Below are positions 1 through 17,319 of a DNA stretch of 32,000 nucleotides, piece by piece. The translations under genes were made by a program, and so were the position numbers. Numbering within the stretch: position 1 is the first letter of the stretch; each line of letters begins with the position of its first letter. This DNA comes from Candidatus Micrarchaeum sp. (lineage in GTDB: Archaea > Micrarchaeota > Micrarchaeia > Micrarchaeales > Micrarchaeaceae), in the NCBI RefSeq assembly GCF_016806735.1, contig NZ_CP060530.1:810001-842000 (forward strand), written 5' to 3'. The notes under the pieces are model-generated. The model saw only the letters and a program-made list of their open reading frames with translations, searched no databases and was not told the origin of the DNA.

Positions 1-302
1 AGCACGCCGAGCAGGTTCTTCACCACGTAAAGCTTCCTCATCTTTTCGCTAGTGTCCAGGGCTATTGAATACTGCACATCTATGGAATCCGGCTTTAGCG
101 TTATTATGAAGAAAAGGAAAGGATTTTTCTGCATGTCCCTGCTCTCCACGCTCAGCAGAACCAGGCTGTTGTCCTGCTCGAGCTTGACGGAGAACATCTG
201 CAAGGTGGAGAATCTTTGGGCTATGCTTGGGAAATCGCCAGTTAGCGTGGCCTTGAGCGAGAACTCTGCTATTTTTGGTTCTATCAATCCTGTTTCAGCC
301 AT
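1..302 (-). CDS. hypothetical protein, N-terminal fragment running off the window edge; last visible gene of the minus-strand cluster
   Basis: Not in the ORF track because there is no stop inside the window. Reverse-strand ATG at 300-302, and the frame stays open for 100 codons to position 1 (MAETGLIEPKIAEFSLKATLTGDFPSIAQRF...). It lies 45 nt downstream of the 348..731 gene. Preferred over the + strand ORF 52..411, whose Ser/Leu/Cys-rich product looks like antisense noise. Confidence 0.45.
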   Translation of the reverse strand, partial: MAETGLIEPKIAEFSLKATLTGDFPSIAQRFSTLQMFSVKLEQDNSLVLLSVESRDMQKNPFLFFIITLKPDSIDVQYSIALDTSEKMRKLYVVKNLLGV

Positions 303-347
303 CGGAAGACCTTTAGGTTATCTACAACATAAATTAAAAGTTTATTC

Positions 348-731
348 TTATATTTGTTGCCCTGTGCTTTTGGATGCGCCCCTGCCCTGCTGCTTCAGCC
401 CGGGCATGTAGCTGAGCAGCGACAGGGCGTACATCAATATTATTATTGCGATGCCGGCTGCAACCGCGCCTAGGCTTCTCCCGGTTATTATTAGCAGCGC
501 CGCGAATATGACCCCTATTGCCAGGTACGATACGGTTTTCGAGTTGTACGAATCCCTGGCTTTCTTGTATTTCACGTAGCAATCCTTGCATACTACTAGC
601 CTGTAGTTCTTCTCATTGTGCGTAACGTTGTGCTTGAACCAGCGCAGCGATTTTATAACATAGTCGTCTTTCACTTCGAGCCCGTTGAGCTCCTTTCCGC
701 ATATTATGCATCTTGTCTCCTTTTTCATCAT
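348..731 (-). CDS. small zinc-ribbon membrane protein (N-terminal CxxC...CxxC, two C-terminal TM helices)
   Basis: 127 aa starting ATG-ATG. Motifs CIICGKEL ... VVCKDCYVKY form a 4-Cys ribbon, followed by hydrophobic segments AIGVIFAALLIITG and AVAAGIAIIILMYALSLL. It starts 2 nt after the upstream gene's stop. Confidence 0.65.
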   Translation of the reverse strand: MMKKETRCIICGKELNGLEVKDDYVIKSLRWFKHNVTHNEKNYRLVVCKDCYVKYKKARDSYNSKTVSYLAIGVIFAALLIITGRSLGAVAAGIAIIILMYALSLLSYMPGLKQQGRGASKSTGQQI

Positions 732-733
732 AA

Positions 734-1039
734 TCAGCTAAAATTTATCGTAGCCTCAAAAATCCTCCCGGATTCTGCAAGGAGCTTCTGCTCGTCCATG
801 CTGTCTATGGTGCTGTTTATCGTTACGTCGTCCATGCCAAGCCTCCTGAGCACGTTTACGATTGCGTCCCTCTTCAGGTTTATTTTCTCCAGCATGCCTG
901 CAAACGCTATTGCGTTTATGTGCCTGTGGGCCTTCTCCATGTCCGAGAAGAGCTTGGCCATGCTCGATTCGTCCACCTTGTATATGGTGAGTATGCGCCT
1001 CAGCTCCTGCCTGCTTATCGTAAATGTGTCCTTAGCCAT
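734..1039 (-). CDS. hypothetical small soluble protein, translationally coupled to the upstream ATPase
   Basis: 101 aa with an ATG start that overlaps the ATPase stop by 8 nt. No TM segments and no motif I recognise. Confidence 0.55.
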   Translation of the reverse strand: MAKDTFTISRQELRRILTIYKVDESSMAKLFSDMEKAHRHINAIAFAGMLEKINLKRDAIVNVLRRLGMDDVTINSTIDSMDEQKLLAESGRIFEATINFS

Positions 1040-2549
1040 TCACAGCACCCACGGATGACATTATTCTGGTTATCAATAGGTCCTCTATGCTCAGGTTCTT
1101 GAGGAACTGGACTACGTCCTCGGTAGTTATGCCGTTTGACATAAGCAGGCGTATGAAGTCTAGTATCTTTGAGGACCTGTTCTGGTCGTTGAGGACCTTG
1201 AATATCGAATTTATGGCTTCTGTGCTTACGTTGTATTCTATGAACTTGTTCTTGAGCTCCTCCTCCTCGAACTGGTAGTCCTTCTGTATTATGCCGGCGG
1301 AAAGCTCGCTCTGTGTCAGTATGTCGGTTATGTCTAGCGTGTACACGTATAACGGTTCCTCTCCGCGCACCCTGTCAAGCACAAATATCTCCGGGAAGCG
1401 CAGCGATGTCTGGAATGCCATGTTGACAGCAGCCTGGCCCACGCCGAACTTGCTTATCTCGGAGCGTATGAAGTCGGAGAAGTTTATGGATCCCTGTATG
1501 TAATCGAGGAACTTTTCGAACCTTATCCTTAGTATGAAAGTTGTGCCTACGTTGGAAAATATGGCTTCGTTTATGTCCGTTGGATTCTGCGATGCCACTA
1601 TTAGGCCGAACTGGTATTTTCTGCCCTCCCTGACTATCATGACCGCGTCGCTCTTCTCATCTCCCGCTATCTTCCATGCCTCGTCGAGAACGACAAGGGT
1701 CTTAAGCCCTTTTGCCTCGTTCCAGCCCTCGAAGCGCATGCGTTCCTTGAGCGTCTGAAGTATGAAAAGGGCGGCAAGAGCCCTGAACCTCTCGTCAGGA
1801 AGGCCAGACAGGTCTATGTCGACAAGCCCCGAGTTCGCGAGCTTTTCGAGGTTGACAGTGCTTTTCCTTGCGAAGTAGTCCTCTCCCTCTCGTGCGAACT
1901 GCCTTAGCCTGTATATCGCATTTTCGAGTTCGGCAGGATATTCGTAGGTGCCCTCCTGCAGCTGCTCTTCAAGTATCGATATCGCGTCCTTTAGCGTTGG
2001 CGCTTCCTTGTCCTCCGGCGCAGGTTCGGCAAGAACAAAGCCTGCATTGGTGTACGATTGCTCTATTGCTTCCTCGGTAAGCCTGCGCTGCTCCGGATAC
2101 GAGGCTATGTCGGTAAGTATCTCGAATGACGAAAGTATCTGCTTGACCCTGTCCAGCGGCTTCATGCCGGAAAGGTCCATTATGTTTAGGTAGTCGCCCT
2201 TGCCCAGCGATACTATTATGCCATCGCTCTGCTTGACCCAGGCGCGGTATTCTGCTGCCCAGTCTATTATAACGGCATTGGTGTTCCATATATAGCTGGC
2301 CCTTATCAGGAATGTCTTGACAAAGTAGCTCTTTCCCGCTCCGGTTATTCCCACAACCGCTATGTGCGGATTTGTAAGGTTGGTGAACGACCAGCTGAAC
2401 GGGACCTTGAAAAGCTTGGTGTTGCCTATGAATATTGCCTGGAACGGGTCGTTTATCAGTATGTTTGCCGGCGGCTCCGGCGGCCTCGACAGGAAGGCCC
2501 TTTTGCCCACCTCGTTGCTCATTATATTCTGCAATTTCAGTATGCTCAT
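1032..2549 (-). CDS. VirB4/TrbE/CedB-like (HerA/DUF87-AAA_10 superfamily) P-loop ATPase lacking a long N-terminal domain
   Basis: 505 aa. Walker A GITGAGKS lies at nt 2328-2351 and Walker B LVVLDEAW (DEAW) at nt 1674-1685. A downstream REGRKYQFGLIVASQNPTDI matches the RK...(A/T)TQ..D pattern typical of VirB4/TraC-type ATPases. There are no GspE/FlaI-type Asp/His boxes. Confidence 0.8.
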   Translation of the reverse strand: MSILKLQNIMSNEVGKRAFLSRPPEPPANILINDPFQAIFIGNTKLFKVPFSWSFTNLTNPHIAVVGITGAGKSYFVKTFLIRASYIWNTNAVIIDWAAEYRAWVKQSDGIIVSLGKGDYLNIMDLSGMKPLDRVKQILSSFEILTDIASYPEQRRLTEEAIEQSYTNAGFVLAEPAPEDKEAPTLKDAISILEEQLQEGTYEYPAELENAIYRLRQFAREGEDYFARKSTVNLEKLANSGLVDIDLSGLPDERFRALAALFILQTLKERMRFEGWNEAKGLKTLVVLDEAWKIAGDEKSDAVMIVREGRKYQFGLIVASQNPTDINEAIFSNVGTTFILRIRFEKFLDYIQGSINFSDFIRSEISKFGVGQAAVNMAFQTSLRFPEIFVLDRVRGEEPLYVYTLDITDILTQSELSAGIIQKDYQFEEEELKNKFIEYNVSTEAINSIFKVLNDQNRSSKILDFIRLLMSNGITTEDVVQFLKNLSIEDLLITRIMSSVGAVNG

Positions 2550-2559
2550 TTTTACGACC

Positions 2560-3390
2560 TCAGCTCTGGTTATCGAACATCGTCGAAAGCTCCTTCATGC
2601 CCGTGGGGAGCGAGAAATTGAAGTTGAAAAGCGAATAAAGCTCGCGGCCGATTATCCTTGAGGTTTCTACGTCCATAGAACTGAACGACAGCCTTAATTG
2701 GTTTACCTGCGCGTCAAGCGCGTCAAGAGCGGCCTTCTCGCTTACCCCTATCGCAGTGGTTTCTATGTACATGACTGTGGCTATTGGCTTCTCGCCCTGG
2801 GATATCCTGTTTATCTTGGCCTGTATCATGTTCATTCTCCTTCTTATGTCCGTTAACGTGACCTCGTTCGAATTGTTCTGCATTGCCCTCGACAGCTGAA
2901 ATTCCTGGTAAGAGCGCTTGCCCTCGAGCTCGTCCCTTATGCCCTGGACGTCAAGGCCTGAGGCAAGGACATGGAACTTGAAAGGGAAGTTTATGTTCAT
3001 CACTATGCGCTCCCAAAGCTCCGGCGCGCTTATCATCTTCTCCTCGTCATCTTCCGGAGCGGATTCCTCCCTGAAAGTATAGGCGAAGAGGTTGGCGGTG
3101 ATATAGCCGGTTGCGTAGAATATGCCGTTCACTTCCTTTATAACGGCGTTCTGGTGCTTGTTGATCGTGTAATCCTTCGCAGGCTGGAAGGTTATTCCAA
3201 GTATTGAGGTTATTGCAGAGAAAAGCTTCGCGTCTATCCAGTTCATCGCAAGTATGAAAAGGGTAGTTATAAGCAATAGCAACACGCCTATGTAGTATAA
3301 TATCCCCTTGCCGAGCTCATGCAATGCCAGGAATCCGAAAAGCACTATTATAAGCGAAAAGAGGAGGAATACGAGCTTTGTTTCGTCCAT
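2560..3390 (-). CDS. 2-TM anchored protein with a soluble C-terminal domain; paralog of the 3390..4223 product
   Basis: 276 aa. N-terminal hydrophobic helices are LVFLLFSLIIVLFGFLAL and ILYYIGVLLLLITTLFILAM. It shares colinear patches with the neighbour: VIKEVNGIFYATGYI / ILRKSGENFIATVYI, EDDEEKM / EDDEKL, and IATVMYIETTAIGVSEK / FELSTYMTVSATGVKEY. Confidence 0.75.
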   Translation of the reverse strand: MDETKLVFLLFSLIIVLFGFLALHELGKGILYYIGVLLLLITTLFILAMNWIDAKLFSAITSILGITFQPAKDYTINKHQNAVIKEVNGIFYATGYITANLFAYTFREESAPEDDEEKMISAPELWERIVMNINFPFKFHVLASGLDVQGIRDELEGKRSYQEFQLSRAMQNNSNEVTLTDIRRRMNMIQAKINRISQGEKPIATVMYIETTAIGVSEKAALDALDAQVNQLRLSFSSMDVETSRIIGRELYSLFNFNFSLPTGMKELSTMFDNQS

Positions 3391-4223
3391 TATATTACCT
3401 GTTCCTGTATGTTTTTGCTTATCTGTTCCGTTACCGTCGAAATCGGCAGGAGGTATTCGGGCTCGACAAACCTAAGCAAGTCCGCACCGGTTATTATGCT
3501 AGGCGGGACTCCGAATATGGATCCCACTCCGGACATCAGCTCCTTGGCTTTCTGCTGGGCCAGGCTCGATGCTTCATATTCCTTGACACCGGTTGCAGAC
3601 ACTGTCATATAGGTGCTTAGCTCGAAGGAAAAGCCCTTGCCTATGCTGTCCAGCATGTTGCGCCACATGGCCAGCTTGCCACGGACTCTGTCCAGTTCGT
3701 TCTTCGGCGCGTCCTTGGACTGAAGGTCTGCCTCCTCGTTCTCAGTCATCGTTATCCTTTCCTTGAGCTTCTGTATATAGGAGTCCTTGTTCATCACGTA
3801 GAGCTCCGAGGTATACCTTACCGGATCTTTTGAGAGGCCGACAAGCCTGCTTATTTGCTGTGAAAAGTCTAGTTTTTCGTCATCCTCCATTTCTGTGGCT
3901 GACCTGTACAACGGTATCGATATGTAGACAGTAGCTATAAAATTTTCTCCGGACTTGCGCAGTATCGTATCTCCAGACTGGGCAAGCCAGTATGGATTCT
4001 CGTTGCTAAGTATTACGTGCTTCTTTCTGTGTTTAAGCAGCGGACCAATCAAGTATGAGTAATATCTGGAGGTAAATGCCATTGCGTCCAATACGAGAGA
4101 GATAAAGAATAATATTATTTTTATGTATGAGGGAAGCAGCAGAGAAGGGACAAACATCACTATGCCCATTAACACCGCAGATGCCAGGATTAAACCTACG
4201 AACATCCCCACGTAACTTGCCAT
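3390..4223 (-). CDS. 2-TM anchored protein with a soluble C-terminal domain; paralog of the 2560..3390 product
   Basis: 277 aa with an ATG start. Its stop overlaps the next gene's ATG by 1 nt (TAATG). N-terminal TM helices are followed by a charged, coiled-coil-like soluble domain. Confidence 0.75.
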   Translation of the reverse strand: MASYVGMFVGLILASAVLMGIVMFVPSLLLPSYIKIILFFISLVLDAMAFTSRYYSYLIGPLLKHRKKHVILSNENPYWLAQSGDTILRKSGENFIATVYISIPLYRSATEMEDDEKLDFSQQISRLVGLSKDPVRYTSELYVMNKDSYIQKLKERITMTENEEADLQSKDAPKNELDRVRGKLAMWRNMLDSIGKGFSFELSTYMTVSATGVKEYEASSLAQQKAKELMSGVGSIFGVPPSIITGADLLRFVEPEYLLPISTVTEQISKNIQEQVI

Positions 4224-4295
4224 CGAATCACTACCATATTGCTTTAAAGGTTAATAAATTTACCTATATATATCCACAGTACATATTTTCATTGC

Positions 4296-5921
4296 TTATA
4301 TAAACTTGGCGCGCGCCCTTCCGCTCATGCGTGCGGCTCCGCCTATGAAATTCGCAAGTTGCACGACGAAGGCGTACGTGACCGCGCTTATCAGTGCAGG
4401 ATAGAACAGTATCAGCAGCCAGAAGCTGTTCAGTGAGCTGCTTATGCCTGAAAGGGTAATGACGAGCGGGCTTGAAGGCGTCACAGCGTTATTGACTGCG
4501 CCTTTGCCTACGCTGTACCTGTTGAGCAAAGCCGCAACGTTGTTCATCTGTGTAGCGAGATGCGGAGCAGTGAAATAGAAGGCAACCGCAAATAGGAGGG
4601 GCATTACAAAATAGAATCCGGCGGCAAGGGCTATAAGTATGCCTCCGAGCGACCTCGTTGGAAGCAGAACCCTTAATATGACTCCCGGTATCAGGAAAAC
4701 GGGTATGGCTGCAATTGCGAAAAATACTATTAGATAGTATTCGGCGTACAGCGCCAGTATCCCGTCGTATATGAAGCCGGAAACTACCGCTGTGGGCTCT
4801 ATGAAATATATGTCAAGCGGAAGCAGCGAATATTTTACCACAGTGCCTGTCAGGTTGAGCTGCGGCACAGCAGGCACGCTTAAGTCTACGGACAAGGTGC
4901 TTAGGTACATGTCGTAGTCGTAGGCGTGGAACAGGCCGGTGTATACGTTCTCTGCCGAATTTATTGTAGTAGTTATAAGATGCAGAGAAGTAGCGTAGGG
5001 ATTTATCGCACCGACGAAAACCCCGGGAATAAGGCCGAATATCACGGCGCTAAGATAAACGAAAAATGCTACGATTATGGCACTTGCCACTGCTTCGTAT
5101 AGTTCGCCTATGCCGAAGTTGCGTATCTTGTTGTTTTTGATTCCGGCTCCGACCATGAATATGCCCCCTGCTATGAGGAAGGCTATCATAACGACTATGA
5201 ATGCTATCGGTATGTCTTTCTGCCAGGATAGGTACAGCGATTGGTTTATCGGGCAGTACCATGGCTCGTTCGAGCCCAGGCTCTTTGCCAGGCTTGGTGG
5301 AAGGAAGCCGCACTCTATCTTGGGCGGCGTTGAAGAGGGAGAGCAAGCGATGTATCCCGAGGGACAACCGTTGGTTGGGCCGCTGCTCTGATACTGGCAA
5401 TTGGACGGGCAAGAACTTCCAACAGTTGACGGAAGGCATTCATTGCACGAATAAAAAGCAGTCGTTGTTGTGGATGTGGTTGTTGTAGACGTAGAAGTTG
5501 TCGAGGTGGAAGTTGTGGAAGTAGATGTTGTTGTTGACGTTGTTGTTATTGACGACGAGGTAGTTTTTACAGTAGTTGTAGAAGTTGAGGTAGTAGTTGT
5601 TACACATACTAAGGCCCTGCTTGTTGTTCCAGGACAGTCGAAATGCTCGACCTTGCAGTCGCCTATTGGACAGCTGACCTCTGTCCCGCATTCGTCGCAA
5701 TTGCTGTATTGCGTCATTATCGGTATGCTTAATGTGCTTAAAGTGGAATCGGAAGTGCCTGCATATGCGTATCCGGATGTTGAGTTGATTGCACCGACTG
5801 GCTGCTGGTGCTGGACGTTATGAGGCGCATAGAAGTACGATGCATAGGCCAAGGCAACGGCTATAATTACCGCGTATAGGACGAATGCCATTAATCTCTT
5901 TTCGTTTTGCAAAACTTGCAC
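4296..5921 (-). CDS. polytopic membrane protein, paralog 6 of 6 (RxxPxTRxxGG family), with an N-terminal Cys-rich plus poly-Thr/Ser ectodomain
   Basis: 541 aa. A GTG at 5919-5921 abuts the upstream stop; an alternative ATG at 5889-5891 would give MAFVLYAV.... It has a signal-anchor, two Cys modules flanking a 47-aa T/S run, then the family core (GELYEA ... ILRVLLPTRSLGGILIALAAGFYFVMPLL ... GGAARMSG tail). Confidence 0.8.
   Translation of the reverse strand: MQVLQNEKRLMAFVLYAVIIAVALAYASYFYAPHNVQHQQPVGAINSTSGYAYAGTSDSTLSTLSIPIMTQYSNCDECGTEVSCPIGDCKVEHFDCPGTTSRALVCVTTTTSTSTTTVKTTSSSITTTSTTTSTSTTSTSTTSTSTTTTSTTTTAFYSCNECLPSTVGSSCPSNCQYQSSGPTNGCPSGYIACSPSSTPPKIECGFLPPSLAKSLGSNEPWYCPINQSLYLSWQKDIPIAFIVVMIAFLIAGGIFMVGAGIKNNKIRNFGIGELYEAVASAIIVAFFVYLSAVIFGLIPGVFVGAINPYATSLHLITTTINSAENVYTGLFHAYDYDMYLSTLSVDLSVPAVPQLNLTGTVVKYSLLPLDIYFIEPTAVVSGFIYDGILALYAEYYLIVFFAIAAIPVFLIPGVILRVLLPTRSLGGILIALAAGFYFVMPLLFAVAFYFTAPHLATQMNNVAALLNRYSVGKGAVNNAVTPSSPLVITLSGISSSLNSFWLLILFYPALISAVTYAFVVQLANFIGGAARMSGRARAKFI
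5461..5598 (-). repeat. low-complexity (ACN/AGN)n coding repeat encoding a Thr/Ser run
   Basis: The + strand reads gtcgttgttgtggatgtggttgttgtagacgtagaagttgt.... The minus strand encodes VTTTTSTSTTTVKTTSSSITTTSTTTSTSTTSTSTTSTSTTTTSTTTT. Confidence 0.85.
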
Positions 5922-7037
5922 CTATATGAAATTTGAAAGCAAAGCCATAAAGCTTACCTTTTCGCCTATCGCCTTCGAAAAATCAACTATGAAAGCGTCC
6001 AGTATTATGAAGTTTATGAATGGTATGAATGTCAGTCCAGCTATGACGTACCCGAGCCCAAGTATAAGCCCGCTTGGAAGCAGAGGCAGAGTACTGCCAT
6101 AAGCGAACGTTATGAAGTCCACTATCGCAGATGGAAGAAGCGCGAAGGCCCCGGTGGCGGATATCATGTTCGCGTCTATGAACCCGTATGTTATGCTTAT
6201 CAGAAGAGGGTATATTACGCCGAGGCCCAGGCCGAACGCTATCATCGCGCCTCCGAATGTCCTCGTTATGCCGAAGAGCCTTGCAAACACTCCGAGCGTT
6301 ATGAAAAATATCAGGAACAGTATAGATCCGGATATCAATATTAGCTGCAGGTTGTTTAGCACTAAGAAGAATATCAGGGCAGACATTCCGGAGCCCAGCA
6401 TGCCTTCAAGCCCGTCGGGCATGACGCTCGTAAGCGAGGAGGATATCCCAAATCCTTCGATAGGCTCAAAGCCGAATTCGATTCCCGGAGATGAGCCTGA
6501 GGCTAAGCCTATTACGGAAACAAGGTCAAAATACCCAAGCGCATTGTTGGAAAATGTGCCTATGTCGCATGCCGACAGGTTGAACAGTGTGTTTATGCTT
6601 GGAGTGCTGCACTCTTTTGGGAGCAAGCCCACGGAATTGTAGTAGGTTGAGGGATTTATCAAGAACAGGTAGAAAAGCCCCAGGAATATAAGCAGCAGCA
6701 CTATGGAAAGCAGAGCTTCGTATATCTGTATCTTCGCCCAGTTTTTGGCGTTTGAGCTGTTGATTACGCTCGCGATTATGTAAATAAATGCCGAGATTGT
6801 TATTACTATCAGGACCACTATTATTGCGAGGCCCATGCTGACTACAGGAGGAGTTATGCTGGTGAGCATTATTGGGAATGCTTTTATCTGGGCCAAGATG
6901 CCTGGATGCGACAATATATATGTCTGCAGGCCGTTCTGAACAAAAGCACCTGAACCGGTTCCTGAAGCACCGGCAAGCGGGGCGAGCGCTGCCAAGAGAA
7001 GCACAATGACCGCAAGCATAGATATTTTCATTGTCAC
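5922..7037 (-). CDS. polytopic membrane protein, paralog 5 of 6 (RxxPxTRxxGG family)
   Basis: 371 aa. Start is either GTG at 7035-7037 (GTGA overlap with the upstream stop) or ATG at 7029-7031. Signal peptide MKISMLAVIVLLLAALAPLAGASG. Family motifs: IQIYEA, FARLFGITRTFGGAMIAFGLGLGVIYPLL. Confidence 0.8.
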   Translation of the reverse strand: MTMKISMLAVIVLLLAALAPLAGASGTGSGAFVQNGLQTYILSHPGILAQIKAFPIMLTSITPPVVSMGLAIIVVLIVITISAFIYIIASVINSSNAKNWAKIQIYEALLSIVLLLIFLGLFYLFLINPSTYYNSVGLLPKECSTPSINTLFNLSACDIGTFSNNALGYFDLVSVIGLASGSSPGIEFGFEPIEGFGISSSLTSVMPDGLEGMLGSGMSALIFFLVLNNLQLILISGSILFLIFFITLGVFARLFGITRTFGGAMIAFGLGLGVIYPLLISITYGFIDANMISATGAFALLPSAIVDFITFAYGSTLPLLPSGLILGLGYVIAGLTFIPFINFIILDAFIVDFSKAIGEKVSFMALLSNFI

Positions 7038-8161
7038 ACCAGACCCTTGAGTGCATTCCCGCTTGAAAGGCTCGGCGCGCCAAGATAATCGCCCATAGTC
7101 TCGGCGAAGTCAAGCGAAAGCATTATCGATATCACCACTCCGATTATTACGTATATGCTGGGTGCCACGACACCCTCTATGAAACTTATGAGCATGTCAC
7201 CGCTTATAAAGTTGGCAAGGTAAGACAGGCTTGATACCGGGTTCCCGGAGAACGACGACAGGCTGAATATCGAGGTGTCGAACGTAGTAACCGGCACGTT
7301 AGAGAAGGATACGCTTGTGACGAAGCCGAGTAGAAGCGGAAGCAGTATGTAAAAGCCTATGAAAAGCCCTATGAAAGCCCCGCCTGCCGCACGTGTCCAT
7401 GGTATTGTTCTTAGTACAATCCCAACATAGAGGAATATTGGAAACAGGCCGTATATTATGGCAAGAAAAACCGATAGGCCGAAAAACAACGCTATTATTA
7501 TGCCTGTGAATTCCATCATCATTTTTATTATCTGGTTGACGACAGTAAGTCCCACATAAGGAAGGAATGAGAACCCGAAATAGTTTGGCGCTACGTTTAT
7601 GGTCGTATGCGAAACGATGCTGTAATAGTCCTGTATTATGGTAAGAGACCTGAAATCCGAAGTCGTATTAAGCGCGGTAAGCGTCATAGTATAGCAGTCA
7701 TGGCTGAAAATCCCGTAGAAATTGTAGTTGGAGAATATCCTTCCCGGAGAAGTGCCTCCGGTTATGGCAGCCATTGAGCCAAGCAGGACCAGCAGTATTA
7801 TGAGCGATATGGCTATTTCGCCCATCTCCGTTTTTGAAAAATTGACAAGCAGGTTTATCCCGAGGGCGTACCCTATCGCCCACGCCATTCCGACTATGGC
7901 GAAGATAAGCGCTATTATGGATATTGATATCGTGAAAACTCCGCTGGAAAGCGCGTTCCCAGAAGTTATTTCTGTAGATGATGGTATTATCCCATTAGAC
8001 GTCACAACCCCGTTGGCATTCGTAGTCCCGACGCAGAACGAAGAAGCTTCGCCTGAATAGCCGGCATGGGCCGAGGCAGGGAGCACAACCAGAAGTAGCA
8101 ATAGCAATGCCAGCACAGGCATGCCCCTTGCAGTCATTCCAAATCTTCCAGATGCCATCAT
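7034..8161 (-). CDS. polytopic membrane protein, paralog 4 of 6 (RxxPxTRxxGG family)
   Basis: 375 aa with an ATGA overlap with the upstream gene. Signal peptide ...VLALLLLLLVVLPASAHA. Family motifs: GEIAIS, VLRTIPWTRAAGGAFIGLFIGFYILLPLL. Confidence 0.8.
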   Translation of the reverse strand: MMASGRFGMTARGMPVLALLLLLLVVLPASAHAGYSGEASSFCVGTTNANGVVTSNGIIPSSTEITSGNALSSGVFTISISIIALIFAIVGMAWAIGYALGINLLVNFSKTEMGEIAISLIILLVLLGSMAAITGGTSPGRIFSNYNFYGIFSHDCYTMTLTALNTTSDFRSLTIIQDYYSIVSHTTINVAPNYFGFSFLPYVGLTVVNQIIKMMMEFTGIIIALFFGLSVFLAIIYGLFPIFLYVGIVLRTIPWTRAAGGAFIGLFIGFYILLPLLLGFVTSVSFSNVPVTTFDTSIFSLSSFSGNPVSSLSYLANFISGDMLISFIEGVVAPSIYVIIGVVISIMLSLDFAETMGDYLGAPSLSSGNALKGLV

Positions 8162-9663
8162 ACCAACCTCGACAAGCCCGCAAGGGATGTGTCACCGCCC
8201 AGCAGGCCGGACACCCCGATTATTGCGGTCAAAACTATTATTATGTTTATTATTGGAAGGAAGTATGCACTTATCCCGAATACGCCGTAAGATCTTGCCA
8301 CCAGGTAGTTTGTATTCAGCGCCTGGGATCTGTTGCAGGCATACGTTATCCCGAGTGTGCCGGTTGGCGGAGTCGGGTTATGGTTTGCAAACGCTATTAT
8401 GGAACTGAATATAACTCCGCCGTTGGCATACGGTATCAAGAGATCCTGCGTATCTGCCTGTTCCGTCTCAAAAAGGTTCCCGTTGTGCGGCCAGCAGCCG
8501 CCATATATTGCTATTGCGCTTATGTTAGGCATTATGTAGAAATTCGTCACATACGGCTCCCCGGTGCTGTTTGGAATGAAGTACGTGCTGTTCGTGAATA
8601 TATTTCCGAACCCGTAATAGCTGCCTATGTCGTTTGCAGAATATGAACCTGGAGTTATGGCGCCTGAAGAGCCAGATGGAGGCACATATCCCAGGGATGG
8701 GCCAAGCCCGTGAGCCAGCGAAAGGTATTCTATTGAAAATATCAGAGGGAAGAATATCACGCCTGCCACAGCTATAGCAAGCAGGAGCCCGCCTATTTTT
8801 CTTGTGAACGGAGTCGCCCTTAGTATTATCCCAACGAACAGGAAGTAAGGCCATGCGTATAGGAATATTGACAGAAGCGTCAGCTGGGCTATGAAGGATT
8901 CCAGAGCTGCGGTCAGAAGGTCTCCAAGCGCTGCCAATGATTTATATATCAACGAGTATCCTGCGAACGGAGTAATTGAATAGTGTATCAGCAGCTCCGG
9001 TGGATCCGGGAGCGGAAGCACGCATTCCGGTATTATTGGAATAGGGGGATCTCCCGGCGATATGCATATGTTTAGCGAGGGCGATAGCTTTTCCAGGAAG
9101 CCGACATAGGAATCGAATATGAAGAACGAATTCAGGTTTGTCGCCGTCTGGTTTGTAACGTTGGCTATTATGACACCCGTAGCCGCAAGCGGATAGTCAA
9201 CCTTCTCGGTAAACGTCTGCTTGTTGTTTTGCTTTACCAGGGCGCACAGGCCTGGGAAGCCGCTGGCACTCGAAGAATAAAGCAGCGAGGAACCAGTAGG
9301 GGACAGCGATGAATTCAGAAGCGTAAGCATTGACGTGGAGTTTATGCCCTTGCACATGTTGAATATTGCCGATGGAGACATCAGCGATGTGGATGAAGTG
9401 GCTGAATAGAAGGTGTTTGCGAAGATTACCAATATTCCGGCGAGCACTGCCACCAGCAGCGCGGTGCCGAAAACCTGGTAGAATTCGCCCATTGCAGTGG
9501 ATTTTATCTTGTTGTTGTTAAGAACAGCTCCTGCGAAATACCACAGCGCAACTATGGCAGCGTCTATGAATATCGCTATTGCTATTATTGGAAACATCTC
9601 CGTTGATATGGAGCTGTAGCTGGTGATTTGAAGCAGCGGAAACAGAAGCGACAAATCCATCAT
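8158..9663 (-). CDS. polytopic membrane protein, paralog 3 of 6 (RxxPxTRxxGG family), with enlarged extracytoplasmic loops
   Basis: 501 aa with an ATGA overlap with the upstream gene. Family motifs: GEFYQV, ILRATPFTRKIGGLLLAIAVAGVIFFPLI. It carries several N-X-S/T sequons and paired Cys in its loops. Confidence 0.8.
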   Translation of the reverse strand: MMDLSLLFPLLQITSYSSISTEMFPIIAIAIFIDAAIVALWYFAGAVLNNNKIKSTAMGEFYQVFGTALLVAVLAGILVIFANTFYSATSSTSLMSPSAIFNMCKGINSTSMLTLLNSSLSPTGSSLLYSSSASGFPGLCALVKQNNKQTFTEKVDYPLAATGVIIANVTNQTATNLNSFFIFDSYVGFLEKLSPSLNICISPGDPPIPIIPECVLPLPDPPELLIHYSITPFAGYSLIYKSLAALGDLLTAALESFIAQLTLLSIFLYAWPYFLFVGIILRATPFTRKIGGLLLAIAVAGVIFFPLIFSIEYLSLAHGLGPSLGYVPPSGSSGAITPGSYSANDIGSYYGFGNIFTNSTYFIPNSTGEPYVTNFYIMPNISAIAIYGGCWPHNGNLFETEQADTQDLLIPYANGGVIFSSIIAFANHNPTPPTGTLGITYACNRSQALNTNYLVARSYGVFGISAYFLPIINIIIVLTAIIGVSGLLGGDTSLAGLSRLV

Positions 9664-10862
9664 AAGCTCTCCCAGAACGATGCAGGCCCTTCTATGCCGA
9701 CGTTGAGCCCTCTTGCAAGCCCCATCGCAAAGCCGATGGTGACTGCAAGGTTAAGTCCGAAAAGGAACACTGCAACGAATATGAACTGCGACATCTGCTG
9801 CGTTATGTATGCCGCAGCAGGCTCTGGATCTATTGTAAGCGAAGAATAGAACGAAGATGAAAGTACGTTATTGACCGCCGGTGTGGATATGCCGAGCGCA
9901 CCGGTTATGCCGCCCAAAGCGTTGCTGCTGCTGCTTGTCACGCTTGTGCTGAGGAAGGACGAAGATGGAAGACTGGGCAGGGTATATGCGGTGCTCAGGC
10001 AGTTGGTGCAGCCATATGCCGGATTCAGCGCCGGGCTGTATATCCAGTAGACGATATAGCTGTCAAAGGCTATCATCAGCGGGTATATTATATACGCTGC
10101 GATTGCTATGGCAAGTATTGCGTTTGATGCGGATTTTAGACCGTTGCCGCCATAGGGTATCAGCCTTATCAGTATGGCAACCGGCAGTATTACGGTAAAC
10201 GCAGTATATTCCAGAAGGGGCAGCGCCAGGTATTGCAGATAAAGCATGCCTATGGTTATCACCAATATTGGCGACAGGGCATCGAAATAGACGTCTGAAA
10301 GCGCACCGTAGAGGGAGCCGAGGTCATGCTCGTAGGTGATGCCGAACGACAGTGCAGAGTCCCCGCCGGTACTGAAACCCAAATCCTGGGAAAGCGCAGT
10401 TATGACCCTAGCTTCTATGGCATAGCCTATGGATGTTGAGTATATGTATCCCAGCAGGTTTATTCCGTGGTTGAGAGCCAGCGTTCCTATGTAGTAATCG
10501 GCATACTGGAACGGGCTGAGCCCATTGGCATTGGAAACTCCGGCGCTGGCAAGCACTTGTGAGCCGAGGCTACTCGATAGGTTGCATGCGGCCGTGGTCA
10601 TGGAAAGCAGTATGAGTATTATGAATACGCCGATGAATATCTGCGTAATCTCCGACTTTGTCACCTCCCTGAGCCTGCTGCTTACCGATGGCGGCGTAAG
10701 CCTGCTGACCATGTACAGTATGGCCACTATCAGGAAACCGAGTGCTACAACCAGATATGTGAGTGGCAGCCAGCCGCTTATATACGGAGAGGCAGGGCCC
10801 CCGAAGAGCTGGCAGTAGTTTATTGCCGTTGTTGTAGCAGCTAAAATGAACATTATACTCAC
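9660..10862 (-). CDS. polytopic membrane protein, paralog 2 of 6 (the most divergent member)
   Basis: 400 aa. Start is GTG at 10860-10862 (GTGA overlap) or ATG at 10851-10853. Motifs are degenerate: SEITQI, LIRLIPYGGNGLKSASNAILAIAIAAYIIYPLM. The C-terminal tail GLARGLNVGIEG resembles the other paralogs. Confidence 0.75.
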   Translation of the reverse strand: MSIMFILAATTTAINYCQLFGGPASPYISGWLPLTYLVVALGFLIVAILYMVSRLTPPSVSSRLREVTKSEITQIFIGVFIILILLSMTTAACNLSSSLGSQVLASAGVSNANGLSPFQYADYYIGTLALNHGINLLGYIYSTSIGYAIEARVITALSQDLGFSTGGDSALSFGITYEHDLGSLYGALSDVYFDALSPILVITIGMLYLQYLALPLLEYTAFTVILPVAILIRLIPYGGNGLKSASNAILAIAIAAYIIYPLMIAFDSYIVYWIYSPALNPAYGCTNCLSTAYTLPSLPSSSFLSTSVTSSSSNALGGITGALGISTPAVNNVLSSSFYSSLTIDPEPAAAYITQQMSQFIFVAVFLFGLNLAVTIGFAMGLARGLNVGIEGPASFWESL

Positions 10863-12163
10863 GCTATCTTGAATTTGCCTACGCCCAGGCTTAGCTTTCC
10901 GCCGAGCATCTGGGCAAGGGCTCCCGCAATCACTATCGTTATGACTATGTCAAATATGAAAAGTATCAATTGCAGCAACACTCCGTACGTATAGAAGTTT
11001 ATGAAGTTTATTGAAGGATATATTGAACCGCCGTCATTATTAAACAATGTTGCCAGGGCCGAATCCTGCCCGTTGTTGAATACAGCAGTGTAGATAGAGC
11101 TATATGTTTGCCCACTTGTTATTTGCTCACTTATCAGGTAACCGGAAGAGAGGCTGAAAGCCAAACTTGCCGGGCCGCAGGCTATGTCCTCAAAAAAGTT
11201 GAAAGTTATGTAATTGCATGATTGCGCCGGTGCATAGCTGGCGCTCTGGCTGAATATAAGAGGCAATATGAAGTTCTGTATGGGAAGGTTGAACATTATT
11301 AATAGGGCAGGGAAGATGAGCGCTATTGCTATGCCTATGGCTATGAATGAGCCGCCCAAGCCCCTGAGGAATGGAAATGCCCTGAACACTATGCCTATGG
11401 GTATGAACAGTGTCAATCCGGCAATCACTATTGAATAAAGATCCACGCTAAGGACGCTGAAGACTATGTATACTGGAACCAGCACTATGGTTATTATGTC
11501 CTTTATGAACGAGAACCCTGGAAGCGCGGTGTCAGACTCTATTACGGAACTTGCAAGCAGAGCCGCATTGGATGAACCAAACTGGATTGCACCGACAAAA
11601 GGCAGAGGTATGGGTATCCATTCAGTTATTGACGCTTTTTTTAGGTCTCCGGTCCCTGTTGCTAATCCTTCCAGGCCGTAGTAGGATTCATTTACCATCA
11701 GCATATCCGGATTCACGTAGCTGGCCAAGACTGATGAGTAAAGCGCGTTTAGATTTTCTCCAACCGCACTGGTTATTCCGGATTGCGACCCTGGTATGTA
11801 GGAAACAGGTATGCTGCTTCCCGTAAGGCCCAGGGCCAAGCCCCCAAGTATTATCAGGACTGCAAAAATCAGCACTATCAATATTATCGTTTTTGTTGTT
11901 TCCCATAGCTCGCCTTTGTACCAGTTCTTAAGCGATGGAAGGTTGAAAACATTGCCAAACATGAACGCCACGGCAACCATGGCGAATGAGACAAGAAGGC
12001 CGATTACGGCAAGAGGTATTGCGCTTTCTATGCAGACACCAGCTTGCGTTATTGGCACGCTCTGACCCGTAAGCGCGCACGTTATGTCTGTGCTAGATGC
12101 GTTGGAATAGCCAATCAATGAGACAACGGCTATTGCTAACAGCAAAAGTGCAGCGCTTCGCAT
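10859..12163 (-). CDS. polytopic membrane protein, paralog 1 of 6 (RxxPxTRxxGG family)
   Basis: 434 aa with ATG at 12161-12163. Signal peptide MRSAALLLLAIAVVSLIGYSNASS. Family motifs: GELWET, VFRAFPFLRGLGGSFIAIGIAIALIFPALL. Tail: QMLGGKLSLGVGKF. Confidence 0.8.
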   Translation of the reverse strand: MRSAALLLLAIAVVSLIGYSNASSTDITCALTGQSVPITQAGVCIESAIPLAVIGLLVSFAMVAVAFMFGNVFNLPSLKNWYKGELWETTKTIILIVLIFAVLIILGGLALGLTGSSIPVSYIPGSQSGITSAVGENLNALYSSVLASYVNPDMLMVNESYYGLEGLATGTGDLKKASITEWIPIPLPFVGAIQFGSSNAALLASSVIESDTALPGFSFIKDIITIVLVPVYIVFSVLSVDLYSIVIAGLTLFIPIGIVFRAFPFLRGLGGSFIAIGIAIALIFPALLIMFNLPIQNFILPLIFSQSASYAPAQSCNYITFNFFEDIACGPASLAFSLSSGYLISEQITSGQTYSSIYTAVFNNGQDSALATLFNNDGGSIYPSINFINFYTYGVLLQLILFIFDIVITIVIAGALAQMLGGKLSLGVGKFKIA

Positions 12164-12206
12164 AATATTATTTTCAAGGATAAGTATTTAGTTGTGTGAC
12201 AGTCGT

Positions 12207-12216
12207 GCACATGTGC
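12207..12216. promoter_or_regulatory. perfect 10-bp palindrome GCACATGTGC upstream of the six-paralog operon (possible operator)
   Basis: Read directly from the sequence. It sits in the 104-nt gap between the 244-aa gene and paralog 1. On the coding strand it lies about 17 nt upstream of a TATA-like TAAATACTTA (12181-12190), which is itself about 18 nt from the ATG at 12163. Confidence 0.3.
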
Positions 12217-12267
12217 CGTTGTCCTTGGTGCCAATAGCTTGAAAAGGGGCAATTATGCATGGGCTTT

Positions 12268-13002
12268 TTAGGTATGGCTAAGTATCTTGAATCTCCTTAT
12301 GTAGGATTCGCTTTGCAGCACTATCAGGAATGGAAGCACTATGAAGGAATCTATGACAAGCGATGCGTACATAGAGACGTACGAGCCTGAGCCTATTATG
12401 GGTATTAAGTCAACAACGCTAAGAAGCACGAAAGATGCAAGTACCCACAGCAGGAAATACTTGAAGTGGTTTTTCATGAAGCCGAGGCTGTGCCCAATGG
12501 CCCTCATTGTCCTGGTGTCGTCTATCACTATGGACGTAGGGGCATAGAACAGGAATGGTATGAGAACGATCGCAGTGATGAGCGTGGCTATGCCAGAATA
12601 CCCGGTATAATACGTAAGGAAGCTTACTAGCACCAGAAGCGCGGTAAAGAGAAGAAGCACCACGAAAACATTGGCAGTGTATTTCTCCAATCCGTCTATT
12701 ACCTCTTTCCTGATCCTGGTCGCAGTATGGCTGTGCTTTACTATGACATTTATTGCGACTATGGCAAAGCTAAGGAATAGAAGCGAAAACATCGTAGAGG
12801 CCACTATTATTATCGCGTCTATGAAATTCAGGTTCAGGTATATGCTTCCGGTCCGAATGAATATTGAGCCGAGGTCGTTGTACGTAGGAAATGGAGCGAA
12901 CACCGGTATCAGAAGGGCGATTACGAACGCTATCGAGAAAAGCAGTATCAGCTTCAAATTTTTTTTGTAGGTGCTGAATGAGACCTCAATTATGTTAGCC
13001 AT
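12268..13002 (-). CDS. polytopic (about 6 TM) membrane protein, function unknown
   Basis: 244 aa with ATG at 13000-13002. It is almost entirely hydrophobic helices separated by short basic loops (KHSHTATRIRKE, KNHFKY). It lies between the pilin-like gene and the paralog array. Confidence 0.7.
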   Translation of the reverse strand: MANIIEVSFSTYKKNLKLILLFSIAFVIALLIPVFAPFPTYNDLGSIFIRTGSIYLNLNFIDAIIIVASTMFSLLFLSFAIVAINVIVKHSHTATRIRKEVIDGLEKYTANVFVVLLLFTALLVLVSFLTYYTGYSGIATLITAIVLIPFLFYAPTSIVIDDTRTMRAIGHSLGFMKNHFKYFLLWVLASFVLLSVVDLIPIIGSGSYVSMYASLVIDSFIVLPFLIVLQSESYIRRFKILSHT

Positions 13003-13112
13003 CGGTTTACCACGTTTATGATTGCAAATGACCGCAAGTTCAGATTATTAGAAGTTTAACACAATAAATAGATTTCGGTATGCGCAGGAATTGCGCATGC
13101 TAAGCGTCCCTG

Positions 13113-13180
13113 GAAAACGAAATCAAAAAAGAGGTAAAAAAGAAAGAAATAGAAAGCATGCCGAAGCCGCTTTTGGCTTC
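13113..13180 (-). terminator. hairpin plus long T-rich tract directly after the VirB2-like gene
   Basis: The minus strand reads TGA-AGCC AAAAGC GGCTTC, a 6-bp stem (13175-13180 / 13163-13168) that overlaps the stop codon. It is followed by GGCATGCTTTCTATTTCTTTCTTTTTTACCTCTTTTTTGATTTCGTTTTCC. Oligo-T tracts are the known archaeal termination signal. Confidence 0.6.
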
Positions 13181-13565
13181 AGCAATAAGAGGATATGGTC
13201 GAGGATGACGTGCTCGTTAGCAGCCCCAGTATGTATGGTGCAAGCTCGGCTATTATCACGCCTATAACCCCGCCTATTATCATGCTCATTCCATATCCCT
13301 GTATTGAACCCTTGCTCTGTGCGGGCATTATGTGCGCAGCCGCATATAGGGCTCCGCCCAGTATCATAAGGGTCAATCCGAGTATGAATATGCCTGTGTT
13401 TACGGCCACATATATGGGGCATATTACGCTGCTTATAGTTACTTGTATGCTAGATTGTGCCGAAGCAGTAGCTAGAGTAAGAAATGGGAGCAGCATAAGT
13501 ACAAGTTTGAACACGCGGGACTGTACTATCTTCATTAAACTTAATGTTTTTGTTTCTATAGGCAT
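13179..13565 (-). CDS. small secreted two-helix membrane protein; candidate VirB2/TrbC/CedA1-like conjugative-type pilin
   Basis: 128 aa. Start is ATG at 13563-13565, or the internal M at 13535. Sec-type signal MKIVQSRVFKLVLMLLPFLTLATASA|QSS. The mature part of about 92 aa is two hydrophobic helices (ICPIYVAVNTGIFILGLTLMILGGALYAAAHI and MSMIIGGVIGVIIAELAPYILGLL) joined by a short loop with one basic residue (PAQSKGSIQGYG), followed by a Ser/Thr tail. Confidence 0.65.
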   Translation of the reverse strand: MPIETKTLSLMKIVQSRVFKLVLMLLPFLTLATASAQSSIQVTISSVICPIYVAVNTGIFILGLTLMILGGALYAAAHIMPAQSKGSIQGYGMSMIIGGVIGVIIAELAPYILGLLTSTSSSTISSYC

Positions 13566-13851
13566 TTTGGCACCCGATCAGATATATTGACTTACTTTTA
13601 TATGATTGAATAATTTAAATAGTTTTCTATCATCTGATAATTGCTGCATTACCCAGTAGGGTTTATTTTGCATTGAGTGTGCCAACTAGAATCCGGATTG
13701 GCGTTATTATCGGTTTATGCTGCATATGCTAGCGCATAAGATGCTAACACATAAAGAATTAACATTTTAAATAGATACAAAAACCATGGTGCCTGGTTTT
13801 ATTGGCGCAATATGATTAACATGCACATTTTGCTCTTGATGCTGTGATTAC

Positions 13852-16859: not shown

Positions 16860-17313
16860 GATTACTGCACGAAAGGCGGCATATGCCGTAGTTATTATTG
16901 CAATGCTCGCCGTATTGTTCTACTCGTTTTTGCTGCAGGTGCACGAGCTCGCAATAAAGCCGTCAAAGATAGCCCAGGCCGGAGGCGCAAGGTTTTATGA
17001 GAATTTTGTATACAACAGCAGCAGCAAAATACCGAACAGCTGCCTCGTTTTCAGCTATGATCCAACCCTGTTCAACATCGTTGGAAAGAATTCGGTCCAG
17101 TATTATTACATATACAACCAGAGCTTCATGGGCAGGGCGAGCGCCGAATACAAATGCTTGGTGATAGATTATGGATATTGGTGCGGAACGCCTGACAACA
17201 TATGCCAGCAGGCATTTTCCGAATACAAAACTTCGCCGATAGCTACTGCGACTTATCTTCCCGACAATTTCGAGTATGGGTTTTATCGCATAACAGGCTA
17301 CAATTCGAGCTGA
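16837..17313 (+). CDS. TM-anchored extracytoplasmic domain protein; probably the C-terminal part of the preceding GT-C transferase
   Basis: 158 aa in the +1 frame relative to 15558..16859. There is no ATG before its TM helix; only TTG/GTG codons at 16837-16845 are available. It overlaps the upstream ORF by 23 nt at a T6 run (16833-16838). Confidence 0.5.
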   Translation: MVVDLKDKITARKAAYAVVIIAMLAVLFYSFLLQVHELAIKPSKIAQAGGARFYENFVYNSSSKIPNSCLVFSYDPTLFNIVGKNSVQYYYIYNQSFMGRASAEYKCLVIDYGYWCGTPDNICQQAFSEYKTSPIATATYLPDNFEYGFYRITGYNSS

Positions 17314-17319
17314 ACTGCT

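Follow-up and report, generated by a model that had tools for sequence, protein, structure and literature searches.

The window analysed here, 32,000 nucleotides of the Candidatus Micrarchaeum sp. contig NZ_CP060530.1 (positions 810,001 to 842,000), begins with a tightly packed run of genes for membrane proteins and a single P-loop ATPase, and the question raised by this locus is what kind of machine the run encodes. A sequence-only reading of the window had seen in it a divergent member of the superfamily formed by type IV secretion systems (T4SS) along with the archaeal DNA importers Ced and Ted. ATPase, pilin family, N-terminal module and gene order agree with this assignment, and we consider homology of the core to T4SS and Ced-type systems very probable. 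The cluster as a whole, whose genes are numbered g01 to g16 in the order of transcription (Table 1), probably encodes a resident, T4SS-derived envelope machine of Ced/Ted type, expanded and rearranged, and so far seen in Micrarchaeota only.

The motor ATPase and its probable, separately encoded anchors

The ATPase, g11, carries the motifs GITGAGKS (Walker A, around residue 68), LDEAWK (with DEAW as Walker B) and EGRKYQFGLIVASQNPTD, and ends in a helical domain of about 80 residues. Its Pfam matches are DUF87 (E-value 1e-16), AAA_10 (4e-12) and P-loop_TraG (2e-9), the latter two above their cutoffs. Among the NCBIfam models it matches CedD (2e-18), the VirB4-like CD1110 (1e-17), CedB (3e-16) and VirB4_plasma of mycoplasma integrative conjugative elements (5e-16), aligning only with the C-terminal ATPase part of the Ced and VirB4 models. 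HHalign comparisons with VirB4 proteins of Gram-positive conjugative plasmids, which are of the mating-pair formation type FATA (MPF-FATA), gave probabilities of 95-98%, and a tblastn search of plasmids with g11 returned 439 matches, mostly to annotated traC/VirB4 genes. Motifs, Pfam, NCBIfam, HHalign and tblastn thus agree on an ATPase of VirB4/CedB type, as the motif set alone had suggested. Since g11 reaches 59-67 bits against the CedB and CedD equivalog models, whose cutoffs are 600-700, it is not an orthologue of either protein. Some ATPase homologues (P0358, P0359; loci L042, L066, L071, L082) contain inteins, located directly behind the P-loop (GSGKS) and immediately ahead of Walker B (DEAW), for which reason the ATPase shows up as two to three open reading frame (ORF) pieces in several loci.

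With a P-loop that starts at about residue 68, g11 lacks an N-terminal domain. Among 1.8 billion representatives, searched exhaustively, there are fused relatives of 690-913 residues in which two transmembrane (TM) helices and a domain of about 230 residues precede the homologous ATPase domain. The nearest full-length relatives outside the g11 family belong to the P0398 class (E-values 1e-38 to 1e-48). The fused relatives match the CedB model nearly end to end (1e-27 to 1e-42), and one of them sits in a CedA1-CedA-x-CedB operon (locus L086).

By profile comparison, g09 and g10 are homologous to the N-terminal module of these CedB-like proteins. The family profile of g09 aligned with residues 81-254 of the fused ATPases at an HHalign probability of 95.2% (E-value 3e-8), and that of g10 with the same module at 36%. 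The two profiles aligned with each other at 96.5% (9e-10), which supports the earlier notion of two paralogous two-TM proteins; by BLASTP the pair is not similar (E-value 5). The connection to the fused ATPases came from profile-profile comparison only; when g09 and g10 were searched against these proteins with hidden Markov models (HMMs) and Z set to database scale, there was no match. In addition, g10 matched VirB4_plasma over positions 24-276 of the model's 894 (2e-4), and 11 and 7 of 40 members of its family had weak matches to CedB and VirB4_plasma, respectively, always in the N-terminal part of the model. For an AlphaFold2 (AF2) model of g10 with a predicted local distance difference test (pLDDT) score of 75, the PDB matches with the highest TM-score and the highest probability were TrwK/VirB4 chains of R388. 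The N-terminal domains of CedB and CedD superpose on that of VirB4 and together may stand in for one VirB4 (PMC11868833). We conclude that the short length of the ATPase is probably explained by a VirB4/CedB N-terminal module that has two genes of its own, g09 and g10. The short ATPase and the duplicated two-TM proteins would therefore be one phenomenon, namely anchor modules placed before a single motor gene.

On the Clostridium botulinum plasmid pCLJ (L120, 3166-6098), PrgI, a 257-residue 'TraC family protein' and a 620-residue ATPase are encoded by overlapping genes, and this trio may be a bacterial case of a separate piece before VirB4. HHalign comparison of g09 and g10 with the 'TraC family' protein gave nothing.

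The pilin and the six polytopic proteins

The product of g01 has a Sec-type signal peptide, two hydrophobic helices, one cysteine near the mature N-terminus and another at the C-terminus. An alignment of 45 orthologous sequences shows that the signal peptide ends in a small-x-small site and that the two helices are joined by a conserved loop, HIMPGQxKGxxQGYGM. The window protein itself matched Pfam TrbC with an E-value of 0.016 (15.9 bits, below the cutoff of 27.9); among the orthologues, 25 of 45 matched PF04956 (best 9e-7) and 5 of 45 T4SS_pilin (PF18895), and any other family was matched by at most three. Together with the two-helix architecture, this bears out the VirB2/TrbC-like nature that had been proposed for the 128-residue protein. 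All 45 orthologues have at least two cysteines and nearly all have exactly two, with C128 kept in every sequence and C49 in 38. Bacterial TrbC/VirB2 pilins are head-to-tail cyclised, and a disulfide joining the two ends of g01 could mimic this cyclisation.

The proteins g03-g08, with about 5-7 predicted TM helices each, are a six-fold paralogous family, as the sequence-only reading had it. All pairs gave HHalign probabilities of 93-99% (98.5-99.3% for g03 against g04-g08, 93-98.7% for g04 against the other paralogues), and the motif G-I-V-x-R-x-x-P-x-x-R-x-x-G-G-x13-P is common to the six. Pfam does not recognise them, and none of 116 homologues of g07, all on Micrarchaeota-type contigs, has a Pfam domain. 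The N-terminal hairpin of g04 shows a weak likeness to the pilin g01 (70%). Large extracellular loops with 8 N-glycosylation sequons mark g05, and g08 has a Cys-rich and Thr/Ser-rich (TTSTSTT...) extracellular extension at its N-terminus, covering approximately residues 1-230. The total length of g08 ranges from 370 to 600 residues across species; in public gene calls it is cut to 297 residues, with spurious ORFs on the opposite strand in the low-complexity stretch.

As a comparison set, we built families of CedA (15 members) and CedA1 from 26 CedB-like loci. When the pooled g03-g08 profile is aligned with CedA, the polytopic motif falls on CedA 'AiPFRiGRrlG...LP' (shared P..R..G-x13-P), and the first helical hairpin of the pooled profile aligns with CedA1 (E-value 5e-4, probability 32%); reversed-sequence controls gave an E-value of 0.76. 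Comparing each paralogue separately, at first with the single CedA1 and CedA of L086 and then with the 15-member families, yielded HHalign probabilities below 20%, and comparisons of the families of the cluster with single bacterial PrgI, CD0415, Maff2 and VirB4 N-termini gave a signal for the ATPase only. Neither g01 nor g02 showed similarity to the CedA1 and CedA families. The alignments of the pooled profile are suggestive of a kinship of the polytopic proteins to VirB6 and CedA.

The gene slot that they occupy is seen in a minimal relative. In locus L112 (7645-15507), whose ATPase is 29% identical to g11, the genes for a pilin, one polytopic protein, one TM-anchored N-terminal domain protein and the ATPase follow each other, and the single polytopic protein matches the HMMs of g03, g05, g06, g07 and g08 with E-values of 1e-10 to 1e-18. 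This order equals that of CedA1-CedA-CedB in L086 and of Maff2-CD0415-PrgI-VirB4 in a streptococcal plasmid; g03-g08 thus occupy the CedA/VirB6 slot. The Micrarchaeota cluster is therefore an expanded Ced-like operon, in which the polytopic gene has gone from one copy to six and the anchor from one to two. With six paralogues in fixed order next to an ATPase that is presumably a hexamer, a hetero-hexameric assembly suggests itself.

Locus L112 also encodes a second P-loop ATPase of 765 residues (GLPGSGKT, CLEEAH), which has no counterpart in the Micrarchaeota cluster, and is adjoined by genes for FtsZ, an SMC-like protein and Lon. In another locus (L115, 505-6163) an ATPase relative with 32% identity (P0402) follows a 377-residue polytopic family member and a 1004-residue PA14-like surface protein.

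Could g11 instead be an ATPase of HerA/FtsK type powering a membrane complex that has no kinship with T4SS and serves to segregate or pump DNA during division or to build the envelope or S-layer, the pilin-like and CedA-like likenesses being convergent traits of small hydrophobic proteins? DUF87/HerA is its best Pfam match, HerA chains are its best PDB sequence matches by E-value, the topoisomerase VI-B (TopoVI-B) gene adjoins the cluster, FtsZ is near in two variants, and no significant match in fold or profile was obtained for the membrane proteins. Against this explanation, 25 of the 45 pilin orthologues match TrbC/VirB2 and at most five match any other family, CedB-like proteins from CedA1-CedA-CedB operons have a homologous N-terminal module, and the order of pilin, polytopic protein, TM-anchored N-terminal domain and ATPase is the one found in Ced and Gram-positive T4SS; nor is there a NurA, Mre11 or Rad50 partner. 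We regard it as quite improbable.

Several results nevertheless weigh against a T4SS-derived machine. HerA models in NCBIfam score g11 only slightly below those of VirB4 and Ced (2e-14), and all of its scores there fall far short of the curated cutoffs. Pooled, the polytopic proteins give a profile that aligns with CedA over 249 colinear columns (E-value 6e-4) at a probability of 28.6%, which is below significance. In Foldseek searches of the PDB, the g10 model matched TrwK with an E-value of 0.075 and nothing at 1e-3 or better, and the AF2 model of g07 (pLDDT 82, predicted TM-score 0.73) had no significant match, TrwI/VirB6 being at rank 8 with an E-value of 2.3. For g09 and g10, no direct similarity to bacterial VirB4 N-termini or PrgI was detected, and tblastn of the two against plasmids gave no match. 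The g01 family profile found no solved pilin among PDB sequences, where the profiles of g01, g02 and g10 gave nothing or a chance match to PsbZ, and that of g10 nothing useful. Half of the cluster (g02, g12-g16) is without a recognisable family.

Extent, inheritance and putative function of the cluster

The ORF list agrees with the layout given by the sequence-only reading, a packed minus-strand run of 13 complete genes, between positions 348 and 13565 of the window, followed by a fourteenth ORF (g14) that starts at 302 and is cut by the window edge. Neighbouring genes overlap by 4 nucleotides (g03/g04, g04/g05, g05/g06, g06/g07), 1 nucleotide (g09/g10) or 8 nucleotides (g11/g12), directly abut (g07/g08), or are separated by 10 (g10/g11) or 2 nucleotides (g12/g13). 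The three larger gaps that had been pointed out (13003-13178, 12164-12267 and 4224-4295) are the only ones, and all of them contain A/T-rich TATA-like boxes, as does the region upstream of the pilin gene. The terminator claimed for the pilin gene is likewise present: a G+C-rich hairpin of 10 bp with 6 GC pairs (13184-13159) stands after the gene, with long T runs next to it, so that g01 makes up a terminated transcription unit of its own. Across the window, G+C content stays even, without a shift.

Table 1. Genes and transcription signals of the cluster, with positions in the window
Feature	Position	Strand	Description
g01	13179-13565	-	128 aa, VirB2/TrbC-like pilin precursor
g02	12268-13002	-	244 aa, membrane protein with 6 TM helices by hydropathy
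g03	10859-12163	-	434 aa, polytopic paralogue 1, candidate CedA/VirB6-like channel subunit
g04	9660-10862	-	400 aa, polytopic paralogue 2
g05	8158-9663	-	501 aa, polytopic paralogue 3
g06	7034-8161	-	375 aa, polytopic paralogue 4
g07	5922-7037	-	371 aa, polytopic paralogue 5, modelled with AF2
g08	4296-5921	-	541 aa, polytopic paralogue 6
g09	3390-4223	-	277 aa, 2-TM anchor and alpha/beta domain, N-terminal module copy 1
g10	2560-3390	-	276 aa, 2-TM anchor and alpha/beta domain, N-terminal module copy 2
g11	1032-2549	-	505 aa, catalytic VirB4/CedB-type ATPase domain
g12	734-1039	-	101 aa, stand-alone copy of the ATPase C-terminal helical domain
g13	348-731	-	127 aa, cytoplasmic zinc ribbon with 4 Cys, then 2 TM helices
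g14	1-302	-	first 100 of 242 aa inside the window; coiled coil, winged-helix-like end
Pilin promoter region (putative)	13566-13650	-	TATA-like boxes ATTTAAAT and CATATAAAAG
Pilin terminator	13105-13184	-	10-bp hairpin followed by oligo-T tracts

Public contigs with an identical ATPase (a 221-kb NCBI contig and several metagenome contigs) allowed us to extend the cluster beyond position 1 of the window. The unusual part list noted at first is real and not an annotation artefact, but it was incomplete, as three more genes, the rest of g14, g15 and g16, are completed beyond the edge. The cluster thus comprises 16 genes, about 1.5% of a genome of approximately 1 Mb. An extension that might have run into VirD4, a relaxase or an integrase leads instead, past g16, to TopoVI-B and then to a KH protein of KRR1 type encoded on the other strand. 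Relaxase, VirD4 and integrase are absent from the 10 kb past position 1 of the window, from the 16 genes and from the flanks, no tRNAs were found at the cluster, and there are no replication genes or attachment sites at the cluster and its flanks; the absence of a coupling protein, relaxase, integrase and tRNA site that had been remarked on thus holds for the window, the 10-kb extension and the flanks. On the other flank lie glycosylation genes, then Kae1, glutamate dehydrogenase, diphthamide synthase and FtsZ.

At 13852-17997 and 22208-23140 of the window, genes for a carbamoyltransferase and for two glycosyltransferases, one of PMT_2 type and one of GT2, adjoin the cluster, and an IrrE/M78 peptidase-like gene lies farther away. 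The many sequon-rich surface parts of the machine are possible substrates of the glycosylation enzymes. The FtsZ gene is found at a distance of about 1-17 kb from the cluster in the window (30115-31167, plus strand) as well as in the minimal variant L112 (6057-7094), which is perhaps a coincidence.

The g11 family has more than 1100 homologues, of which the best 120 are 70-98% identical to g11 and carry source names that are nearly all Micrarchaeota; the ATPase of Ca. Mancarchaeum acidiphilum is 74% identical. In a survey with one genome for each GTDB species, 133 relatives of g07 came to light; the 80 loci that we kept are all from Micrarchaeota or from mislabelled Micrarchaeota contigs. Best-hit mapping of all ORFs showed that the order from g01 to g16, followed by TopoVI-B, recurs across approximately 80 species-level genomes, with each of the six polytopic paralogues holding its own slot; recurrence in dozens of other genomes excludes that the order arose by chance. 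Among 82 non-redundant loci, 33 have the full order from g01 to g16 and 50 have g03-g13 contiguous; in 10, g01-g08 stand apart from the ATPase module, and 11 have two to three tandem pilin genes. Mancarchaeum has the same gene order and the same TopoVI-B/KH flank. Across 31 genomes, the identity to the window proteins correlated with that of TopoVI-B (r 0.85-0.96). Median identity was 74% for g11 and 60% for TopoVI-B, whereas the polytopic proteins, at 34-49%, are the fastest evolving. Order, divergence in step with TopoVI-B and conservation of the ATPase therefore point to vertical inheritance under strong constraint, and lineage-wide order combined with slow evolution of the ATPase in a reduced genome argues for a core function. 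Several contigs bearing the cluster (e.g. L006, L009, L011) are publicly labelled Marsarchaeota, Methanothrix sp., Baltobacteraceae bacterium or Acidoferrales bacterium, and probably belong to metagenome-assembled genomes in which they were mis-binned or mislabelled.

T4SS-like gene content would also be shown by a self-transferring element, whether an integrated conjugative one or what is left of a conjugative plasmid, and Golyshina et al. speculated in this direction for membrane-protein-rich islands of Mancarchaeum (PMC5498576). In Mancarchaeum and dozens of further species, though, the locus lies between the same housekeeping genes (TopoVI-B and the KH protein), its divergence tracks TopoVI-B and no shift in G+C content is seen; integrase, relaxase and VirD4 are missing, as are a replication gene and a tRNA, and the viral contigs of IMG/VR gave no relative of the ATPase. 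Synteny, flanks and partner genes contradict this alternative, which we consider extremely improbable. The absence of relaxase, VirD4, integrase and tRNA, together with divergence in step with TopoVI-B, instead makes the cluster a resident, vertically inherited machine, and conserved synteny and housekeeping flanks sustain the view, already taken from the window, that it is cellular rather than mobile.

A HerA-based anti-phage defence system is a still fainter prospect, close to negligible. It is prompted by matches of the ATPase to the PADLOC models of HerA, DndH and mad8 (1e-10 to 1e-19), but these span the generic P-loop core only. None of nine other proteins tested had a meaningful match to a defence family, no SIR2, nuclease or DUF4297 partner is present, and single-copy, syntenic conservation throughout a lineage is unlike a defence island. 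The candidate was rejected, as it is contradicted by the partner genes.

Less can be said about the other parts. In 67 loci g02 is kept, always between the pilin gene and g03, but neither g02 alone nor its family of 44 members has a match in Pfam, NCBIfam or PDB, or relatives outside the lineage. Behind the ATPase, the 101-residue protein and the zinc-ribbon membrane protein listed by the sequence-only reading were recovered as g12 and g13. The former aligns with residues 423-499 of g11, its helical domain of about 80 residues (HHalign 97.4%, with hmmsearch concurring), and the latter has a conserved CxxC...CxxC; a distant relative of the ATPase, P0479, has a fused zinc ribbon. The 242-residue g14 has a domain at its N-terminus, then a coiled coil, and at its C-terminus a domain resembling a winged helix. 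It trails the ATPase even in dispersed variants, and in locus L113 its homologue (E-value 2e-27) comes directly after it. Between g14 and g16, about 50 loci encode g15, a very basic peptide of 44 residues, MKYIARVNKRVRYIRVYGIVKRVGPKQNFLSRLFTKALTKKEEK (L002, 12980-13114, plus strand), which could bind nucleic acid or membrane. The last gene, g16, encodes a bitopic protein of 784 residues with 19 N-x-S/T sequons and a large ectodomain, whose cytoplasmic tail is better conserved.

How might such a machine work? The pilin g01 would be exported via Sec and its signal peptide cut, and the two-helix hairpin, possibly stapled from N- to C-terminus by a disulfide, would sit in the membrane as a pilin pool. 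The polytopic proteins would form a hetero-oligomeric membrane platform or channel, plausibly with one copy of each round a six-fold axis and with their variable, glycosylated loops facing outward. To this platform g09 and g10 would anchor the hexameric g11, supplying the VirB4/CedB N-terminal domain in trans. ATP hydrolysis would drive the extraction of pilins and their polymerisation into a short pilus or conduit through the S-layer, and next the passage of a macromolecular cargo. The products of g12-g16 would be accessories or surface parts particular to the lineage.

The VirB4 of bacteria is an ATPase of pilus biogenesis. With its ATPase confined to this task, the cluster might simply encode a VirB2-type filament or surface structure for adhesion or contact, which attaches the symbiont to its host and moves no substrate. 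The lack of VirD4, relaxase and nuclease, the variable glycosylated loops, the large surface glycoprotein g16 and the tandem pilin copies in 11 loci would all suit such a filament. Yet Ced and Ted, also without VirD4 or relaxase, still import DNA (PMC9905601), the six kept channel-like paralogues and the extreme conservation of the ATPase appear to exceed the needs of adhesion, and Micrarchaeota already have type IV pili loci for this purpose (PMC5498576). We therefore judge a filament for attachment alone unlikely.

For the T4SS-derived machine that we prefer, a role at the symbiont-host or cell-cell interface is reasonably probable. By analogy with Ced, DNA, acquired from the host or sister cells or traded with them, is a tentative proposal for its cargo; proteins or host-derived molecules are also possible. 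A more detailed picture, which we put forward as rather doubtful, is that of a symbiont-side conduit between DPANN archaeon and host, in which a hetero-hexameric CedA/VirB6-like ring carries the glycoprotein g16 and a tube of g01 on top, is powered by a VirB4 split over three genes, and takes up host DNA, nucleotides or other macromolecules. If this were true, the cluster would be the archaeal counterpart of the essential relaxase-less T4SS in bacteria of the Candidate Phyla Radiation (CPR).

DPANN account for much of the diversity of archaea and spend their lives attached to hosts, and hardly any genes for the physical interface have been named. The cluster is a strong candidate for symbiont-host exchange of DNA or other material, and its genes provide named and testable candidates for the three existing Micrarchaeota co-cultures, namely Ca. 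Micrarchaeum harzensis with Scheffleriplasma, Mancarchaeum Mia14 with Cuniculiplasma, and ARM-1 with Metallosphaera.

Comparison with known systems

The HerA-NurA end-resection helicase belongs to the same P-loop superfamily as g11, whose top Pfam match is DUF87. It differs in that g11, with about 50 residues ahead of its P-loop, has no room for the N-terminal barrel domain and in that all partners of g11 are membrane proteins; NurA, Mre11 and Rad50 are absent from the neighbours of the cluster. A HerA-NurA repair module was accordingly rejected as an identity of the locus, since g11 has neither such neighbours nor an N-terminal domain.

The rvh T4SS of Rickettsiales is a diderm bacterial system with VirB7-11 and VirD4, clear VirB6 paralogues and an unsplit ATPase. 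It resembles the present cluster in belonging to obligate symbionts with reduced genomes and in having duplicated components, including tandem VirB6 paralogues (PMC7648143).

Within DPANN, the SPEARE proteins of nanohaloarchaea form a symbiont surface apparatus with a VirB4/TraG-like ATPase, for which a host-directed function has been proposed (PMC10266531). In contrast to g11, the SPEARE ATPase is fused to a giant adhesin with Ig repeats, and a pilin and a set of polytopic paralogues are not described. The layout of locus L115 recalls this arrangement of giant adhesin and VirB4. In the Micrarchaeota and DPANN literature searched, we found no description of the cluster, and Ced or T4SS components were linked to these archaea only via the nanohaloarchaeal SPEARE proteins. 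The Mia14 genome paper, with its type IV pili loci and its speculation about conjugative elements, does not include the cluster either (PMC5498576). Cryo-electron tomography of ARM-1 revealed an unidentified 21-nm barrel in the envelope, which is a docking platform for intercellular nanotubes (PMC11329633); that the cluster encodes this barrel is speculation.

The relaxase-less T4SS of Patescibacteria/CPR, which are derived from MPF-FATA, are similar in being lineage-wide, chromosomal and found in ultra-small, genome-reduced episymbionts. They have VirB2-like pilins, sometimes in multiple copies, and the g11 profile matches VirB4 of MPF-FATA type. Unlike the present cluster, they are bacterial, have a full-length VirB4, separate PrgI/VirB3, VirB6/PrgH and VirB8-like proteins and cell-wall hydrolases, and lack a six-fold polytopic expansion. 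Their T4SS genes are essential for epibiotic growth, which shows that such machines can be core to the lifestyle of ultra-small symbionts (PMC12102498).

Ted of Thermoproteales (TedC, TedA, TedB) is likewise a domesticated, T4SS-like import apparatus, and its pilin is processed by signal peptidase I (PMC9905601), as predicted for g01. Judging by its description, it is different in having a full-length VirB4, TedB, and a single TedA; Ted loci often contain ParA/VirC1, HerA and Rad50, all of them absent from the Micrarchaeota cluster.

Ced of Sulfolobales (CedA1, CedA, CedA2, CedB and CedD/CedE) is chromosomal and archaeal, has no relaxase or VirD4, and combines a VirB2-like two-helix pilin, an adjacent polytopic gene and a TM-anchored ATPase of VirB4/HerA type. 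Its two paralogous N-terminal modules, in CedB and CedD, resemble one VirB4 N-terminal domain (PMC11868833). In the Micrarchaeota cluster, by contrast, the N-terminal modules are separate genes beside one catalytic domain, and the polytopic part consists of six fixed paralogues of 370-540 residues. The pilin has a cleavable signal peptide, as in Ted, and a conserved cysteine pair, six further genes (g02, g12-g16) are conserved, and the lineage is DPANN instead of Thermoproteota.

The apparently split VirB4, the six-fold expansion of a channel-like protein in fixed order and the lineage-wide vertical inheritance in DPANN make this an undescribed architecture. As a machine of T4SS/Ced type, it would carry the range of domesticated conjugation-like machines beyond Thermoproteota to DPANN, a parallel to CPR bacteria. 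For the evolution of T4SS stoichiometry and assembly, it offers a VirB4 divided into anchor and motor, a six-fold channel-like expansion, and a pilin that has a cysteine pair at its N- and C-termini where bacterial pilins are cyclised.

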